64,000 nucleotides of DNA from Octopus sinensis (GCF_006345805.1 NC_043012.1:46624001-46688000), one strand, 5' to 3'; positions 11,881-49,120 are shown, numbered from the stretch's first letter. Translations and numbers: made by a program. Notes: a model not told the origin generated them from the letters alone.

Positions 11881-11883
<3 letters not shown>

Positions 11884-11919
11884 CGCAGGAGTGGCTGTGT
11901 GGTAAGTAGCTTGCTAACC
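11881..11919 (+). mobile_element. SINE family A 5' head (box A), separated from its body by an insertion
   Basis: AGGCGCAGGAGTGGCTGTGTGGTAAGTAGCTTGCTAACC. The SINE resumes at 13973. Confidence 0.92.
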
Positions 11920-13972
11920 CAGAATGCAACACTAGTTGGTCTGGACTGTTACAGTGAGAAGATGTGAGTTTCGGCTCCGCGAACAGAAAAAAAGAACAAA
12001 AAGAAAAATTGTCAATTATGGCTAGCTATAACGAGCAAAATACTGGCTTCTCAGCACCGTAACGGTGAATTGAGAATTTGTTTGAAAATTATTCTTGTGA
12101 ATTCTAGTGGGCGTATCTCGTCAAAAAAAAAAAGGAATAAGCCATTTGGATTACCTTTTTGGAGTATTATACAAACGATTCCCTGTCTGTGCTATTTGTG
12201 AGATTTTTCTTTTACTTTTCCCTTCTATTATTTCTTTCTTTCTAAAAATTTTTGGTTCATTCTTTTCATTACTTTAATTTCAGTTTCCTTCCCTTTCTTT
12301 ATTTTGTTTTATTTTTATTCGGTTTAAATTTTTGGCAGACTGTATTTTGAACTACTTTTGGACTGTTCTTTGACATGGCAGACAAGGAACTTAACAAGAA
12401 AAACTCTGTCTTAGAGTGGGAAATTAACCCGCCTAAACAATGGTTAAAAGATATGGAAGAGAAGACGATGGTACTTAGAACATATTCTAAAGTTCTTAAT
12501 TCCATCACCGTCTTCCCAAAACAAGTCATAAAAAATGAACTTAAAGAACATTTGTCCTCTGTAAAATATATATCCCGTGGTGTCAAACATGCAACCGTAT
12601 GGTTGCTGTTTGACAACGGGGAAAAGGCCCGCCAGTTTGCGAGTCAGCCTTTAGAAGGCAAGGAAATCCTGTATCTCCCGTCATATTGTGGAAGAAAATT
12701 AATACGAGCCTGGATATGTGGGCTCCCCCCGGGCACTGAAGCGGATTGGATTGAAGATACCATCCGACGGGGACTGGGAGATGGCGGGCCCAGGCTCTTA
12801 AATGTAAGAGTATTGCCGGCGGTCGATTGGGAAGGGTCAAAAGCGATGTTGACCCTGTGGACTCCATCGGCCGCAACAGAACTGGTTTTTCCAGATTTCT
12901 TGAAAATGGCTGGCTGCAGGTATCACGTGATACTTGTCGGACGTCCCCCAAAGTGTCACTCGTGCCTGCAGCCAGGCCATATTAAAAGGAACTGCTCCCA
13001 GGACCATGGTAAGGTCCTGGAACAGTCACCAGATGCCACCTCCCCTACCCGGTCAAAGGGAGAGGTGGATGTGGTCGAGGAGGTTTCAGCCTCCTCAACT
13101 CAAAAGGGATTAAAAAGAAAGAAGGCGGGCAACAATAGTTGCCCGCCGAAGGAACCTAAGGCTTCGGGAGGCGGGGGAGAGTCTCCGGACAAAGCGGAAG
13201 GGCTCCACTCTCCCGAAGTCAGGAAGAAAAGAATAAAAAGAAAGAAGAAGAACGAGTCATCTCAGCAGGGAGATGATGTGCCGACTGCATGTCCCGAAGT
13301 TGTGCCACCCACGGTGGAAGAAACCACTCCCACCCTTAAAGATGATCAATTAATTATCTTTTTCTACAAGGGCGGGGAGGTAGAAAAATAGTAGAAGAAC
13401 TTAAAGAAACAGTAGATATGCCCCTCACACGGGATCCCGAATGGCCTCCGCAGATAGCTGTGTAGGTCATAAGGTTTCCCTTGTGGGAAAGGCTTAAAGG
13501 ATTTGGGGAGGAGTGTCGCATATGGCCGGGTGGCCCTTATACGACTTACATGTCCTACATGAGTGAGGCATGGGAAATGGCGGGATGCAGGAACTCAAGC
13601 GGCATTGAAGATAATGATGAATATATCGATGGATGTATCGAAGAGTAGGAGGTGAAGACCCTCGTTACAGAGTTTGGAACCTCACCATATTGGACTATTT
13701 TGTAGTGGTTTATAACCTCAATTTTGTGTTTTAAGAAAGAAAAAAGAAAATATGTTAAGTAAGAGGTTTTAGTGCCTCCTCCTTGTAAAAGGTTCAAAAC
13801 CTTATATTGATTTTTTAAAAAAATAAAAGAAAATATGTTTTCGAGAAAAATCCAATCGGCGGGTGTTGGGTTTCGTCTCTCATTTATTCATTATAATTCA
13901 TTTTCATTCATTAATGTGTTTGTCCAGCCCGCAAAGTTCTTTGTACTGTCTATATGACAAATTTATGAAATA
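11920..13972 (+). mobile_element. ORF1-only non-LTR retroelement (L1/Tx1-ORF1-like, HAL1-like architecture)
   Basis: Flanked by a perfect 16-bp TSD AAGTAGCTTGCTAACC (11904-11919 and 13973-13988). It has one ORF1-like gene and ends in an AATAAA that overlaps the TSD. There is no RT or endonuclease. Confidence 0.85.
12375..13391 (+). CDS. ORF1/Gag-like nucleic-acid-binding protein (RRM-like N-terminus, CCHC zinc knuckle, basic low-complexity region), 338 aa
   Basis: CX2CX4HX4C knuckle CHSCLQPGHIKRNC at 12954-12995, preceded by VILVGRPP. Lys-rich tracts KRKK and RKKRIKRKKK. Probably once continued to 13648 through a 1-nt frameshift. Confidence 0.8.
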   Translation: MADKELNKKNSVLEWEINPPKQWLKDMEEKTMVLRTYSKVLNSITVFPKQVIKNELKEHLSSVKYISRGVKHATVWLLFDNGEKARQFASQPLEGKEILYLPSYCGRKLIRAWICGLPPGTEADWIEDTIRRGLGDGGPRLLNVRVLPAVDWEGSKAMLTLWTPSAATELVFPDFLKMAGCRYHVILVGRPPKCHSCLQPGHIKRNCSQDHGKVLEQSPDATSPTRSKGEVDVVEEVSASSTQKGLKRKKAGNNSCPPKEPKASGGGGESPDKAEGLHSPEVRKKRIKRKKKNESSQQGDDVPTACPEVVPPTVEETTPTLKDDQLIIFFYKGGEVEK

Positions 13973-14360
13973 AAGTAGCTTGCTAACCAACCACATGGTT
14001 CTGGGTTCAGTCCCACTGCGTGGCACCTTCGGCAAGTGTCTTCTACTATAGCCTCGGGCCGACCAAAGCCTTGTGAGTGGATTTGGTAGACAGAAACTGA
14101 AAGAAGCCCGTCGTATATATGTATATGTATATATATATATGTGTGTGTGTTTGTGTGTCTGTGTTTGTTCCCGCCCAACATCGCTTGACAACCGATGCTG
14201 GTGTGTTTATGTCCCTGTAACTTAGCGGTTCGGCAAAAGTGACCGATAGAATAAGTACGAGGCTTACAAAGAATATGTTCTGGGGTCGATTTGGTCGACT
14301 AAAGGTGGTGCTCCAGCATGGCCGCAGTCAAATGACTGAAACAAGTAAAAGAGTAAAGAG
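13973..14360 (+). mobile_element. SINE family A body (box B to 3' end)
   Basis: ...CCACATGGTTCTGGGTTCAGTCCCACTGCGTGGCACC... through ...GACTGAAACAAGTAAAAGAGTAAAGAG. Confidence 0.92.
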
Positions 14361-19299: not shown

Positions 19300-20135
19300 A
19301 TTCCATTATGTTTTCAAAGAAGCGAGTGAGCTACAAAAAGGCAAAGTAGTATCGTCTGATGGTGTTACGCTACCCGATCGTGAGAAAACCAAGAATATTA
19401 AGACTAATAGATGTAAGTATCTGGGTATTTTGGAGTATGAGAAAATCAAGGAGAATGAGATGCAGGAAAGCTTTAACGGGAATGTATCGGAAGAACCAAA
19501 TTCATTATGGGAAGTAGACTCAATGGAAAGAACAAGATCAGGGCAATGAAACATATGGTCTGTTTCCATACTGTGATACAGCGCTGGTGTCATTAGATGG
19601 ACAGAGAACGAGCTTGCGGAAATGGATAGAAAAACCAGGTGATGACAATTAAGAAGGAACTGCACCCAAAAAATCGATGTTGATTGAATGCATGTACCTA
19701 GGTACAAGGGAAGAAGAGGTCTCTTAGAATGCAAGATCTTCGTTGCCAAACAGTCCTGTAAGTACATCAATTATTTGCTTGCCGCTGTTAGAAATAACAC
19801 GATACCTACCGAAAATGTGACGCACCAAAAAAACATTTAAGAAACAAGATGAATAACAAAGAATTAACAATTGGAGATCTGAGCTAAAGGCAAAGCTTTA
19901 TCTTGGCTACCCAAGATCTTGATCTGGAACTATCAAGCCATATTGATGAAAAATGGTGTAGACCCAAAGTGCCGATACTGCATCGATGGGATAGAAACAG
20001 AGTACAACCTAATCTCTGGACGTAAAGTTTTAGCCCTTGTAGAATACAGATCAAAACAGGACATAGTTGGCCAATATCTACACTGGATAATGTGTCGGCA
20101 TTATGAAATCAAAACTGCTGACAAATGCCCTAAGT
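19300..20135 (+). mobile_element. R4/Dong-like LINE remnant (RT C-terminus and zinc-knuckle region)
   Basis: KYLGILEYEKIK, YSAGVIRWTENELAEMDRKTR, HVPRYKGRRGL, and DPKCRYC..IET...LISG...EY...QDIVGQYLHW.MCRHY. Confidence 0.8.
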
Positions 20136-20399
20136 GTCAAGAAGACACTCGACAAGAAATGGAAAGAAAATTGAAAGAGGATAATGAAAGAAAAACATGT
20201 AATAGTAACAAATACACTAGTACCACCACCAACAACAATGCAATCGTAATTCCTTCGTTATTAACTGCATTAAACACTTTAATGTTAAAATACCTGGGTT
20301 GACAAGTCAAGCTTTATTAAGAACAAGAGGCGAGGAAAAGATTAATTTGAATGAATTCGTTAAAAATTTGATAATTCAGAATACATAAACAGAAAATGC

Positions 20400-31487: not shown

Positions 31488-31637
31488 AAACACACACACA
31501 CATATATATATGTATATATACCACGGGCTTCTTTTAGTTTCCCTCTACCAAATCCACTCACAAGAGTTTGGTTGGCCCGAGACTATAGTAGAAGACACTT
31601 CCCAAGTTCATAAGCAAGCTACATACCACACAACCTA
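31203..31637 (-). mobile_element. SINE family A copy (deletion in the tRNA head)
   Basis: Matches the other family A copies and carries an internal (CATA)n(TA)n tract. Confidence 0.9.
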
Positions 31638-31695
31638 TATGTATAATAATATATAATCATTCAAAAAATATATTTCTGTAAATTAGAGTTAATAT

Positions 31696-31983
31696 AAACA
31701 ATTGCAGCGTGGAAGGTGTTTATAAACCATTTAAGAAACACACAAAAATCGTTGGACTCACTTCAACATTTAAATTTAATTTGTCAAAATATTTTCGTCG
31801 CTTTGAGACCGCGACTTGTTCACTGACAAAACTTCGTGCTGCATGGAATTTTGTCTGTGAACAGGTCGCGGTCTCAAAGCGACGAAAATATTTTGACAAA
31901 TTAAATTTAAATGTTGAAGTGAGTCTAACGGTTTTGTGTGTTTCTGAAATGGCTTATAAACACCTTCCACGCAGCAATTGTTT
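31696..31983. mobile_element. ~290-bp palindromic (hairpin) element, copy 1
   Basis: Arms of about 140 bp: AAACAATTGCAGCGTGGAAGGTGTTTATA... / ...TATAAACACCTTCCACGCAGCAATTGTTT. Confidence 0.9.
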
Positions 31984-32042
31984 TCGTTACAGCACAATAT
32001 CTCAGATCAGGTCACTTGCTATGCAAGTACATCTTCGTAAAG

Positions 32043-32083
<41 letters not shown>

Positions 32084-32285
32084 CACACACACATATATAT
32101 ATGTATATATACACGGGCTTCTTTTAGTTTCCCTCTACCAAATCCACTCACAAGAGTTTGGTTGGCCCGAGACTATAGTAGAAGACACTTCCCAAGTTCA
32201 TAAGCAAGCTACATACCACACAACCTATATGTATAATAATATATAATCATTCAAAAAATATATTTCTGTAAATTAGAGTTAATAT

Positions 32286-32573
32286 AAACAATTGCAGCGT
32301 GGAAGGTGTTTATAAACCATTTAAGAAACACACAAAAATCGTTGGACTCACTTCAACATTTAAATTTAATTTGTCAAAATATTTTCGTCGCTTTGAGACC
32401 GCGACTTGTTCACTGACAAAACTTCGTGCTGCATGGAATTTTGTCTGTGAACAGGTCGCGGTCTCAAAGCGACGAAAATATTTTGACAAATTATATTTAA
32501 ATGTTGAAGTGAGTCTAACGGTTTTGTGTGTTTCTGAAATGGCTTATAAACACCTTCCACGCAGCAATTGTTT
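32286..32573. mobile_element. ~290-bp palindromic element, copy 2
   Basis: Duplicate of 31696-31983. Confidence 0.9.
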
Positions 32574-32632
32574 TCGTTACAGCACAATATCTCAGATCAG
32601 GTCACTTGCTATGCAAGTACATCTTCGTAAAG

Positions 32633-32740
<108 letters not shown>

Positions 32741-32833
32741 TATATATACATAATTAATTAGCTACATAAAAATTGCCGGAAATATGTACTTACTATAGAA
32801 AAGTTTTTGATCACGATACGTCTATTATTATTA

Positions 32834-32909
<76 letters not shown>

Positions 32910-33700
32910 ATAATTAATTTATCCTCCAGCGGTCCAACGTCCTCCAGAAAGGATTTTTTGAGTTCATGATAATCATCTTTTTCTAAGTTTATAACGTCTA
33001 TGTTTGTGTTTTTTATGTCTTTGGCCATCTTATACTGTTCAACCGATTTACAATTATAAATTTCTATTGTTAGTTCTGTGTTCGACGTGTTGTATACTGT
33101 GATGCATGAGAAGGAGGGGTCTTTTGTCGGGTGAGGTGTGCCTGCGTGTTTTTTTCTGTAGGGGGAGAGTCGGGGTTAGTGTCGAAGAGGGCGGGCGAAA
33201 GTATGGTGATTGTAGGGACAAGAGAGGGACTAGTGTCTGTTGGGGTAGGGAGGGAATATTTTATCTTCATTTTTTTCTCGTAACATCTGCGAATCCGTCA
33301 CCCGAAGATGCTTCATCGCCACCCAGTTCCTTGCTTAGGTTTGGTTGCACTGTTTTGTTTTCAGTCGTTCTTGTTTTTAATTTTTCTTTCTGACGTCCCT
33401 GGGGGTAGAGGTGCGGTCTGCTAACCAACAAGAGGGACCTCTGGAGTTTGTGAGAGAGGTGGAGGGCATTCGGCTCTAATGTGGCCTTTCTGTCCAAATT
33501 TATAACAATGTGCCTTCCTACCCTCTACTGTAACATGTAGTCGTGTGACGCTTCCCACTGGTATGGTGTCTGGTTTTTTTTTCTTTTAGAACTCGGGGGG
33601 CTGCCTGGATAAACATTCCCAGGCTTTGCCCTGTCAGTTCTGTAGGTGTGTTCTGGAGCCTTGGGGGATTGTTATTTCATCCTCCAAGCTTAATACACAT
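32910..33700 (-). pseudogene. degenerate ORF1/CCHC gene related to 12375-13391
   Basis: Minus 33537-33466 reads HVTVEGRKAHCYKFGQKGHIRAEC, aligning with HVILVGRPPKCHSCLQPGHIKRNC. Pro- and Lys-rich tracts follow, with stops and frameshifts. Confidence 0.7.
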
Positions 33701-34939: not shown

Positions 34940-35480
34940 CTTTGCGACGTTTGTTTTGAAAGTAGTGGATTTCTGATTGCAGCCCTCCCGTGAAATCAGG
35001 CTTTGTGCAGCTCCCAGCGAACAGTTTTTATGGAAACTGGGTTCTCTGAAATAATTTTGAGAGTTGTATCTTTGTGATCCTTTCTAATAATTCGCTTACA
35101 TATCCGACGGTCCCTATCTGAAAGTGTTGGTTTCTTCCGGAATGTTGCTTCGACAAGGAAGTTTTTCCCTCTTTCTCAAAGACTGTCATTACTTTCGAGA
35201 GAGTACTTCTTTATACACCAAACATTTCGGATGTTTTCGTTATGCTAGCGCCTGCCATACGAGCACCAACAATCCGATAGATTTGCGATGTTAATGTATT
35301 GTACTTTCCTATTTCTGACGATATCTGAAAAGAAACATCAATTTTAGTAAATCTTATTAAGCAACAATAATAATAAATCAGAAAACATAAAAATAAACCA
35401 CCTTTTGACGGTTCTATAGGTATTTCAAAATTATAATGCTATGATGCTAGGCATTTCCATTAGTTTGTCCAACCCTTGTA
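34940..35480 (-). mobile_element. Tc1-like transposon 5' part (TIR and paired-like DNA-binding domain)
   Basis: Minus-strand TIR TACAAGGGTTGGACAAACTAATGGAAATGCC at 35480. Protein IVGARMAGASITKTSEMFGV*RSTLSKVMTVFEKEGKTS...GR, and later ELHKA.FHGRAAIRNPLLSK. Confidence 0.8.
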
Positions 35481-36022: not shown

Positions 36023-36976
36023 TTAAAATTTTTTGCCTTTCCCTTGGTGTGAATTTCTCTGTATCAGTATGTTGGAATGGTTAAGTCTGGGCTTGTACTT
36101 TTCAATGAAGAATGTTTCCTTGTTTCCTTGTGTTGATGATCCGATAGCACATTGGTAAAATGGAAAGATTAAAAATTGTGGTAGTAGTTGCTTTGCGCAT
36201 TTCTCAATGTGCTCACTAAAAGGTATCATTCTGTATTCTGGGAATGCAATCTGTTGTCGATGCAGTGTGCATCTACGTCTTAGTGATAGTCCCATGGATC
36301 CCACGTAGTCTTGGTGGCAGCCCGAGCATTTTATGACATAAATTATGTTTTCAGAGGCACAAGTAAAGTTAGATTTGATCTTGAATTTCTGTCCCTCTTT
36401 GAAGAGGAATTCTGATCCTTCTAGTAGGTTTGGACATGTTGCACAGTTCGATCTACCACATTTTTTTACTTTTGCATCCGTAATTTCAGAAAACAATTTT
36501 GCCTTTGTGAGAATCTTTTTAAGTGATTTAGGTTGTTTGTAGCTTTTACTGATTTGGTGTATGTTTAGAATTTCTTTTAATTTGGGGTCCTTATGAAGTA
36601 TTGGTAAATTCTGGGTGATGATGGTGAAGGCTTCTTTGTTTCTGGGGTTGTATGTAGATATGTAAGGTAGTATTTTCGGGGAAGGTGTGTTGTTGTGTTG
36701 AACTTTTCTTAAAGTTTCTATGTTGATTTTTGTTGCACGTCTGATCCCATCCTCTATGAGTTGAGCTGGGTAATGTCTGTCAATTAGGGTGTTTTTGAGT
36801 TCTTGCAGTCTAAAGTTCCTGGTATTTTGTTCTGACACTATTGTGCATATCTTTCTTGCAAGGTTGAAGGGGATGTTTGTTTTAGTGTGTCTTGGGTGGC
36901 ATGAATTGAAAAGAAGGTATTGTTTGGCGTCTGTGGCTTTGTAAAAAATGTCTGTTTCTATTTTAAGGTTAATTTT
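36023..36976 (-). CDS. Penelope-like RT thumb and GIY-YIG endonuclease (5'-truncated, no genuine start)
   Basis: The frame is open upstream of the listed ORF ([39 protein letters not shown]). It contains [23 protein letters not shown]...LRRR...H (GIY-YIG) and [13 protein letters not shown]. Confidence 0.88.
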
Positions 36977-46674: not shown

Positions 46675-48739
46675 TGTTGTGTGGACGCCCCAGACGATGA
46701 AGTAGGCTAACCCAATACGTAGATATAAAAGTCTAGACGTCGGGAATTGTTTAGAGGTCATCCGAACGTGGCGACGAGGATTTCGTAGATCACACAGCCA
46801 TTGTGTAGTATTGCGATATAACTGTGGCGATGAGGATTGCGTAGCACACACAGCCACTGTGCAATATTGCGATATAGGAGTGGCGACGAGGTTTCGAATA
46901 GTACCAAAATGGAAGAGTTACTGAAAGCAGATGTAAAACAACAAGAGCAGCAGCAACTACAGAAGTCAACAGAATTGTTACTGCTGTCGAGAAATACGAG
47001 AGAATCATTTTCGGCAGATGGTGTTGCAAATTCATTCGAATAATTTCACTACAATCCGGATAAAAGAACTACTTTTGATGCATATTAAAGACGATACGAA
47101 GACATATTCCAAGGGATGGTCTAGTGAAACGAAGGTAAGGCTCTTTTGTGAAATCTTGCTACTCCGGAACACGAAAGATTTTGTTATTTTATTTTGCCGA
47201 GAAAGACCATGGAATTGTGTTTTGATGAAACGATAAATATTTTGACTAATATTTTTAGTGAGAAAAGTTCGCAGTTTAACATTCGACGGGAATGTTTAAA
47301 TTTAAAGAAAAACGAGTCCGATGATTTTGAAACATGTGCCGGTATGGTTAAGGCTTGCGGAAGGTTTAAGCTGGAAGAATTAACGCCAGATATGTTCAAG
47401 TGCCTAATATTCGTTAAAAGGCTAGTGGCAATAAAAGACGCGGAAATTAGAAAAAGAATATTATCAAAGTTGAATCAAGATGTGAAACTCACTTTGCAGA
47501 AAGTGGCTGGGGAATGCCAACAATTAATAAACCTTCGAGATTATACAAGAAGATAGAAGACAAGAATAATAATGTACAAATGTGTAAAGAAAGTACAGAA
47601 AGAAGGCAAAATTTATGGTTGCGGAGGTGGACATTTGAGGAAAGATTGCCCCACTGGACATATACAGACGAAATGCCGGTCAGAGAAAATGGTAAAACAA
47701 GAAATTCTACGAAAAAAAATTATATCAGACAAAACCGAAAATTTGTGTTGGTAGAAATAAATGGGTTTCATACCAAAATTCAATTAGATACCGGTATCGA
47801 TAATAAATACGGCAACATGGAGTAAGATAGGCAGGTCGTTGTATAAAAAAAACTACTAGGATAGCCCACGGTGTGTCAGGGGAACGAGTTCAATTCTTGG
47901 GCAAAATTTCACCAGAAATAAAACTTAAAAACAGGACGCGGAAATGTAAACTAATGATATCTAAGAATACAATGAATCTGTTCGGGACAGATTTGATGGA
48001 AGAATTCGACCTGTGGGATCAATCACTGAATACATTATGTAACAAGGTGAATGCGTCACAGTCCGTGTCAGCGAAAGCATCGGAAAAAATGAAATTAAAA
48101 TTGAAAAACATGTACCCTGATATTTTTTCGAAAGAGCTCGGTATGTGTGAAAAAAAAAAAAAGTAAAGTTTGAGTTGAGAGAAAATGCGCTGCCGGTGTT
48201 CAAACCGAAAATGAATGTACCTTTTGCGACGTTAAATCAAGTTAAGAAGGAATTCAAAAGATTGGAAGACATGGAAGTAGTTGAAAATGTAGACTACTCT
48301 GAGTGGGCGGCTCCTGCGGTATATGTAAAAAAAAGAAGAACGAGGTACGAGTATAGTAAAACGACCAAAATACGAACACAAAAGGCGTTTAAACCAATTA
48401 AATAAAAGATATACCAAAAACCCAGAGAAGCGAGAAGAACCAATGGATTTATGGTATGATTTGTTACAGGTCCCAGAACCACAAGCAAAACCGATACGTA
48501 GGTGGAAAAGGAAAAGAAAACCTACAGAAATGATAGATATTAACGCTAAGAGAAAAAGATATGCCAGATTCTCACCAAGGAAATAAAATTGAGAAATTCG
48601 GGTTTAAAAAACTCAAAAGGGGGAGGTGTTGTGTGGACGTCCCCATACGATGAAGTAGGCTATCCCAATACGTAGATAGAGATGGAGAATTCTAGACGTC
48701 GGGAGTTGAGTAGAGGTTATTTGAACGTGCTATATAACA
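46675..48739 (+). mobile_element. internally deleted Ty3/Gypsy (Mag-like) LTR retrotransposon
   Basis: LTRs start TGTTGTGTGGACG at 46675 and 48627, and the 3' LTR ends ...TAACA at 48739. PBS TGGCGACGAGGAT, PPT AAAAGGGGGAGG, 5-bp TSD CCGGA/CTGGA. Protein pieces: gag (LTPDMFKCLIFV), knuckle GCGGGHLRKDC, protease LDTG, and RT start (YSEWAAPAVYVKK). Confidence 0.9.
46769..46892 (+). repeat. 56-bp tandem repeat, each unit starting with the PBS
   Basis: TGGCGA(C/T)GAGG at 46769, 46825 and 46881. Confidence 0.9.
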
Positions 48740-48966: not shown

Positions 48967-49120
48967 GACGGGCTTCTTTCAGTTTCCGTCTACCAAATCC
49001 ACTCACAAAGCTTGGGTCGGCCCGAGGCTATAGAAGAAGACACTTACCCACGCAGTAGGATGAACTTGGAACCATGTGGTTCTTTAGCAAGCAACTTACC
49101 ACACAGCCACTCCTACGCCT
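48740..49120 (-). mobile_element. SINE family A body and head
   Basis: Ends ...cttaccacacagccactcctacgcct, the reverse complement of the head at 11881. Confidence 0.9.

Follow-up and report, generated by a model that had tools for sequence, protein, structure and literature searches.

A probable ORF1-only, non-autonomous LINE copy in the head of an Octopus sinensis SINE

The insert and its host SINE

We analysed a window of 64,000 nucleotides (64 kb) of the Octopus sinensis genome (GCF_006345805.1, NC_043012.1:46624001-46688000), in which positions are counted from the first letter (Table 1). A segment of 2,053 bp, 11920-13972, lies between two exact 16-bp direct repeats (family D13 of the direct-repeat listing). 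When this segment is removed the flanks form one SINE, which aligns through the junction with window copies at 49120, 4368 and 37208 (79% over 384 columns with the copy at 49120-48748). The repeats and the cross-junction alignment thus agree with the first-pass annotation, made from the sequence alone, which had described a 2,053-bp insert with an exact 16-bp target-site duplication (TSD) inside a SINE. The chance of such a 16-bp repeat in two 50-bp zones is ~3e-6, or ~4e-5 if only 14 bp count. By BLASTN, the insert is a single copy within the window.

Table 1. Features of the insert, its host SINE and the second family member in the 64-kb window.
Feature	Positions	Strand	Remarks
Host SINE head, 5' part	11882-11919	+	box A-like motif 11892-11902 and left target-site copy
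Left target-site duplication	11904-11919	+	16 bp; direct-repeat family D13
Leader, T-rich (40% T)	11920-12374	+	455 bp; 11920 is the putative 5' end
ORF1-type gene, 338 aa	12375-13391	+	RRM1 ~aa 18-105, RRM2 ~106-189, CCHC 193-209, basic low-complexity linker
Coding-like shifted frame	13385-13648	+	internal TAG 13463-13465; putative broken ORF1 C-terminal domain
AT-rich 3' region, no ORF2 start	13649-13972	+	324 bp; AATA, then AA of the right repeat
Right target-site duplication	13973-13988	+	direct-repeat family D13
Host SINE remainder	13989-14360	+	box B-like motif 14004-14014, body, inner microsatellite, tail
Second ORF1-family member	32906-33696	-	5'-truncated in RRM2; CCHC region, linker, C-terminal domain, then (TAA)n

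The 3' junction can be read in two ways. An AATAAA is present at 13969-13974, as had been claimed for the end of the 3' region, but its last two A's are also the first two of the right repeat, so that the junction comprises either a 16-bp TSD and AATA or a 14-bp TSD and AATAAA. There is no A-tail in this one copy, in which AATA goes straight into the right repeat. The junction nevertheless carries the two marks of target-primed reverse transcription (TPRT), a TSD of 14-16 bp and an A-rich 3' end, with AA common to both sides. Two other classes of element were considered and rejected: an LTR element, as no terminal direct repeat other than the TSD occurs among 19 direct-repeat families, and a DNA transposon, as the longest 25 of 401 inverted pairs are microsatellites.

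The insert separates a box A-like motif just to its left from a box B-like motif just to its right, both matched only under relaxed patterns. ARAGORN called no tRNA gene, Rfam gave no tRNA match in the empty SINE copy, and the predicted fold of an empty SINE head reached a z of only -1.1. The tRNA head of the earlier description, split between box A and box B, is thus carried by the box-like motifs, which make a tRNA origin of the SINE head plausible.

Elsewhere in the window, a 317-aa open frame on the minus strand (36023-36976) and a 139-aa frame on the plus strand (19883-20302) have no Pfam or PDB match, and a 134-aa frame on the plus strand (47152-47556) has no Pfam match. By eye we take these to be, respectively, similar to the C-terminal part of a Penelope-like element, to the zinc-finger end of an R4/Dong-type element and to a Ty3/Gypsy gag remnant; a minus-strand stretch at ~34950-35450 may, also by eye, be the decayed leader and start of a Tc1/mariner-like transposase. 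A ~590-bp tandem duplication at ~31600-32780, which may be real or a product of assembly, contains a MITE-like repeat that is nearly palindromic, together with an internally deleted SINE head.

The encoded protein and the age of the copy

Behind the leader, whose length matches the ~455 bp of the first-pass annotation, the insert holds a reading frame with its ATG at 12375 and its stop at 13389-13391. An AlphaFold model of the first 222 residues, built on a 23-row alignment, reached a pLDDT of 86.6. With Foldseek its top matches were tandem-RRM proteins (54 at E<=0.001; best E 2e-4), and with VIA-align residues 18-105 superposed on the La RRM (Z 8.3, rmsd 2.9, 81 aligned) and residues 105-188 on RRM3 of Mip6 (Z 8.2, rmsd 2.6, 75 aligned). 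L1 ORF1p was absent among the fold-search matches listed, which excludes nothing. Pfam recovered one zf-CCHC at residues 193-209 (E 0.002, below Pfam's cut-off), and a PDB sequence search returned knuckle matches only. The single RRM-like/CCHC frame of the earlier description is thereby sharpened to two modelled RRM folds and one CCHC knuckle, and the AlphaFold check proposed with it came out in favour of tandem RRMs. On the model, the protein has the architecture of a type I LINE ORF1p, for which RRM plus CCHC is the described layout (PMC5203782; this and the other papers are cited from excerpts). A 3'-end stem-loop of the insert was not borne out (z -0.46). The 3' region contains two imperfect 57-nt copies, 70% alike and 83 nt apart (direct-repeat family D5).

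Homologs of the protein possess a conserved C-terminal domain, and a candidate remnant of it is the shifted frame that overlaps the end of the ORF. Up to 13648 this frame has a GC content of 48% and a codon-position GC like that of the ORF, and against a five-row profile of the family's C-terminal domain it ranked 45 of 1,000 relative to shuffles. Two other tests of the focal shifted frame as the C-terminal domain were not significant, and its single-sequence fold was uninformative (pLDDT 39). These results hint that the shifted frame may be the family's C-terminal domain, and that the focal ORF was probably broken twice near its end, once near 13360-13390 and once by the further stop. At 10% divergence, the probability of the 337-codon stop-free run is 0.008 and that of identical repeats 0.034, rising to 0.25 and 0.43 at 2.6% divergence. 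Both features are thus unlikely at 10% and ordinary at 2.6%, and the focal copy is probably under 5-10% diverged, i.e. young in a loose sense. The earlier view of a largely intact ORF and a recent insertion accordingly keeps its second half, loosely, and is overstated in its first, given the shifted frame and the extra TAG.

Absence of ORF2 and a second, distant member

In LINEs, ORF2 normally sits close behind ORF1. Pfam, run in six frames over bases 1-1,881 of the insert's 2,053 with each stop written as X, detected only zf-CCHC and no reverse transcriptase (RT) or endonuclease, and the 324-bp 3' region (31% GC) has no plus-strand stop-free run longer than 48 codons. Both agree with the initial claim that the insert has no RT, APE or RLE sequence and no space for one. 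The unit is bounded by the TSD. The evidence supports a retrotransposed unit whose sole product is an RNA-binding protein of the ORF1 type and which depends on an ORF2 supplied in trans.

The window holds a second member of the same protein family, found on the minus strand from 33696 by the family profile (E 6e-16). Its C-terminal domain scores z 5.4-9.0 against homologs, with none of 1,000 shuffles reaching its score against three homologs and 2 of 1,000 against a fourth. Directly after ORF1, at 32905, it passes into (TAA)n, the GC fraction dropping from 0.40-0.47 in the member to 0.16-0.36 downstream. No RT or endonuclease was found there by Pfam in six frames down to 27001, in a search of limited sensitivity for a decayed ORF2, given that Pfam also missed the CCHC of this member. 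Its flanks are not SINE, and a candidate diverged TSD of 11-12 bp (33706-33696 and 32823-32812) has P ~0.03, post hoc. It is ~31-33% identical to its nearest homologs over 64-79 aa, and the focal protein is outside its best 14 matches. It is an old, decayed copy of another subfamily than the focal one. It meets (TAA)n ~25 codons before the end point of two homologs and possibly lost its 3' part later.

Both of the two ORF1-bearing copies in 64 kb therefore lack ORF2. By the logic of TPRT, ORF2 would normally be present in any 5'-truncated copy of a two-ORF LINE long enough to include part of ORF1, and the pair is thus unlike the usual leavings of 5'-truncating two-ORF LINEs. The second member also speaks for the proposal that the focal element is non-autonomous, keeps an RNP-like protein of its own and borrows ORF2 in trans. 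The alternative is a one-off event: a normal two-ORF LINE would have dropped ORF2, whether through an internal deletion, through splicing or because polyadenylation came early, and that single RNA would have been retrotransposed once. Just one copy of the focal subfamily was read in the window, and O. vulgaris has many full L1-Tx1 families (80 consensus sequences in the supplement of PMC13282606), as such an origin would have it; against it, the sequence behind the coding region is AT-rich and has no long frame, and the distant second copy is likewise without ORF2. We regard a one-off origin as improbable.

A protein family in Octopus

A phmmer search of 1.84 billion representatives gave 38 matches at E<=0.001, 22 of which form alignment A1; the 16 omitted are multi-knuckle matches, short fragments and the chimeric gene model P0010. 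Among 21 relatives looked up, 11 are from O. sinensis, O. vulgaris or O. bimaculoides and the other 10 carry no organism label. The latter lie on contigs of 614-2,412 bp, with one cluster at 1,849-1,930 bp; these lengths would suit 2-kb units but carry no weight here, such contigs being short anyway. The median pairwise identity in the family is 27% (237 pairs), and in the tree the only protein to group with that of the window is P0001 (100/100), the stem being long. Pfam found zf-CCHC in 8 of 20 homologs at E<=0.05 and an RT or APE domain in none; one of the 20 is a chimera with an integrase.

Further searches added no new relatives, nor any relative with an ORF2 next to it. Fused ORF1-ORF2 proteins of 1,092-3,115 aa numbered none among 4,521 candidates, in what was a weak search, and a profile search among proteins of 90-793 aa yielded nothing beyond three already-known family proteins. 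The contig collections yielded no DNA of octopus type: the SINE motif had no match in viral, genome and metagenome contigs, and protein scans of contig collections found no relatives in 123, 41 and 2 candidate stretches. One MAG locus (L001, one of 70 candidates) was rejected as a relative, with a family-profile E of 0.05 at best and phage-like short ORFs.

In the set P0001-P0028, eleven Octopus gene models contain all or part of the ORF1 family; one of them is named 'EPM2A-interacting 1-like' and one is fused to an integrase. These models are probably mobile-element frames annotated as host genes, and the whole looks like a diversified mobile family that is partly annotated as genes.

By its proteins the window is octopus-like: the closest relative of the focal protein, and the sole match in the first search, is a gene model annotated in O. 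sinensis (62% identity; three accessions for one protein). The domains of the two proteins are 64-71% identical and the linker 50%. An annotated relative with domains better kept than its linker is what one would see if the insert were a processed pseudogene of a domesticated, LINE-ORF1-derived host gene comparable to L1TD1. This relative, however, has lost the first Cys of the knuckle and ends at 281 aa, we regard 62% as low for orthologues inside one genus, and the third near relative is only a 45-aa fragment within the chimeric P0010. As the many deep paralogues and the decayed copy in the window also fit a mobile family, we consider a pseudogene origin very improbable.

The insert was also traced in sequencing runs. 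Of the 24 runs listed, 14, which come from 6 studies and bear 4 organism labels, contain 0.21-0.44 of the 206 words sampled from the insert, with six run rows of word shares <0.2 excluded; in none does the share reach half, and no RNA run is among those listed as containing the words. Compared with what one locus would give in a genome of 2.8 Gb, the share was 7-10 times as high in two low-yield runs from the same sample and 2.4-2.9 times as high in four other runs, and one low-yield run of a sample that otherwise has the words contained none of them. The word shares by themselves would suggest a multi-copy repeat and are silent on ORF2 and flanks; full-length relatives or the orthologous locus could also account for them, which is a further point on the side of a one-off event.

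Proposed mechanism and choice of site

Taken together, the insert is probably a copy of an ORF1-only, non-autonomous octopus LINE family that was moved in trans by TPRT. From the one close copy read, such a family would consist of 2-kb units. A master copy would be transcribed from its leader, the RNA ending at AATAAA plus A's. The two-RRM/CCHC protein would, to go by its fold, coat this RNA and may co-assemble with proteins of the helper. In TPRT, synthesis is primed from the bottom-strand end that borders the right repeat on its left. Here that site is T/AA, and it lies where the box A-like motif ends on its 3' side. To judge from the junction, a helper LINE's endonuclease would nick the bottom strand at this step, immediately 3' of the motif, and free a 3' end whose two T's would pair with the A's of the RNA and prime reverse transcription, which would leave no separate tail. 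A second cut 14-16 bases away would yield the duplication that is seen.

The junction fits an APE endonuclease of a loose L1-type taste combined with A-priming, and an APE-type LINE is the likeliest helper. Our best guess for its clade is L1-Tx1, which is plausible: in O. vulgaris, 13 L1-Tx1 families with 421 insertions have been active recently (PMC13282606, Table 1), and a helper class of this kind thus exists. BLASTN of the insert brought up no helper 3' end elsewhere in the window. The protein itself shows the RRM and CCHC of type I ORF1, a combination that is not specific to Tx1, and its nearest ORF1 look-alikes are spread over several families. In the Atlas its neighbours include unnamed CCHC clusters; ZCCHC3-type RBDs score 0.91 when the whole core is compared, whereas DUF4780 and PRE_C2HC come up with the RRMs and stay below 0.9; the excerpt of PMC10351740 states no link between ZCCHC3 and LINE ORF1.

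As to the choice of site, we favour chance combined with a weak T/AA preference, which is fairly likely to explain the landing in the SINE head, over targeting. In the targeted variant of this family reading, a Tx1-type endonuclease would recognise tRNA genes, or SINE heads derived from tRNA, by their box A end, and most copies would be found at this position with this TSD. Such targeting is doubtful even if the family reading is granted, and rather unlikely overall. It would agree with a cut at the box A edge, a region also used by Dada transposons (PMC8869645), with the many Tx1 families that favour transposons, U2 genes or microsatellites (PMC4494074), and with the small share of host SINE heads in the window (~0.5-0.6%; 5 sites of ~75 bp each). 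Against it, this is a single site picked after the fact, one of the five head sites is filled (four are independent), and the flanks of the distant second copy are non-SINE. The host SINE also covers at least 3.8% of the window, and a T/AA step with A-pairing already matches a loose L1-type cut. SINEs make up 11.6% of the O. vulgaris genome (PMC13282606). A published threshold for target preference is over 20% of flanks with one common repeat (PMC4494074); with two copies only, we have the focal one in a SINE head and the distant one outside. The fullest version, in which an old, diversified ORF1-only octopus lineage has long been without an RT of its own and the focal subfamily homes to the box A edge of SINE heads, is unlikely; if it held, a protein-coding non-autonomous LINE would be parasitising both its helper LINE and a SINE.

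Comparison with known systems

Non-autonomous LINEs that retain ORF1 are an established class that includes HAL1, HeT-A and Ag-Sponge (PMC5786205; PMC5753468). We found no cephalopod ORF1-only LINE in full-text searches of the literature or in the excerpts of PMC8967140, PMC9115989, PMC11203168, PMC4758252, PMC3706591, PMC8869645 and PMC13756887; Repbase, Dfam and the Zenodo library were outside the scope of this survey and may hold it. The focal element most likely belongs to a family of a known kind that has gone undescribed or unrecognised in octopuses.

Such elements escape repeat annotation based on RT and are annotated as host genes, as seen in 11 Octopus models among the 21 relatives. 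If the spread around 27% identity holds among members without ORF2, selection has maintained ORF1 in elements without any RT product of their own, which would allow a test of the role of ORF1 in cis. Targeting of SINE heads, if true, would extend the Tx1-type choice of targets to a SINE and offer a natural route to switching SINEs off; without it, the family is a modest addition.

The first-pass annotation had called the element HAL1-like, which holds for its way of working and not for membership. HAL1 (half-L1) of mammals, which arose several times (PMC5753468, PMC13756887), is likewise non-autonomous and codes for ORF1p only. It derives from mammalian L1, whose ORF1p consists of a coiled coil, one RRM and a CTD and belongs to Transposase_22 (PMC5203782), whereas the focal protein combines two RRMs with a CCHC knuckle and does not match Transposase_22 in Pfam at E<=1. 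The poly(A) tail expected of HAL1 is also absent from the one focal copy. The octopus element is hence likened to HAL1 by its way of working alone.

HeT-A (Jockey clade) and Ag-Sponge (CR1 clade) also encode one ORF1 protein and no RT. The ORF1 protein of elements of this type is thought to multimerise with that of the helper (PMC5786205), and ORF1-only elements account for ~40% of drosophilid telomeric families (PMC13534243). The focal element differs from them in its host, its interstitial position and its TSD of 14-16 bp.

For the targeting reading, the closest precedent by analogy would be TRE5-A.2 of Dictyostelium, which has no ORF2, depends on TRE5-A.1 for its mobility in trans and inserts at tRNA genes (PMC5633606). 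TRE5-A inserts ~50 nt upstream of tRNA genes, guided by a contact between ORF1p and TFIIIB, whereas the octopus insertion sits inside the SINE head. The Tx1 families Tx1L, Keno, Kibi, Koshi, Tx1-Mar and Dewa share a type I ORF1 with the focal element and insert into repeats or small-RNA genes (PMC4494074), and Tx1-Mar also moves the non-autonomous SINEU into the same target (PMC4494074; PMC3706591). Unlike the focal element, these target-specific families are autonomous and defined by their RT, and in the excerpts cited none of them has a tRNA-derived SINE head as its target, Dewa using a tRNA-Leu spacer. ORF1-only derivatives of LINEs have been described in Dictyostelium and in three clades, L1, Jockey and CR1; an octopus family, with its two-RRM/CCHC protein, would add a molluscan case.
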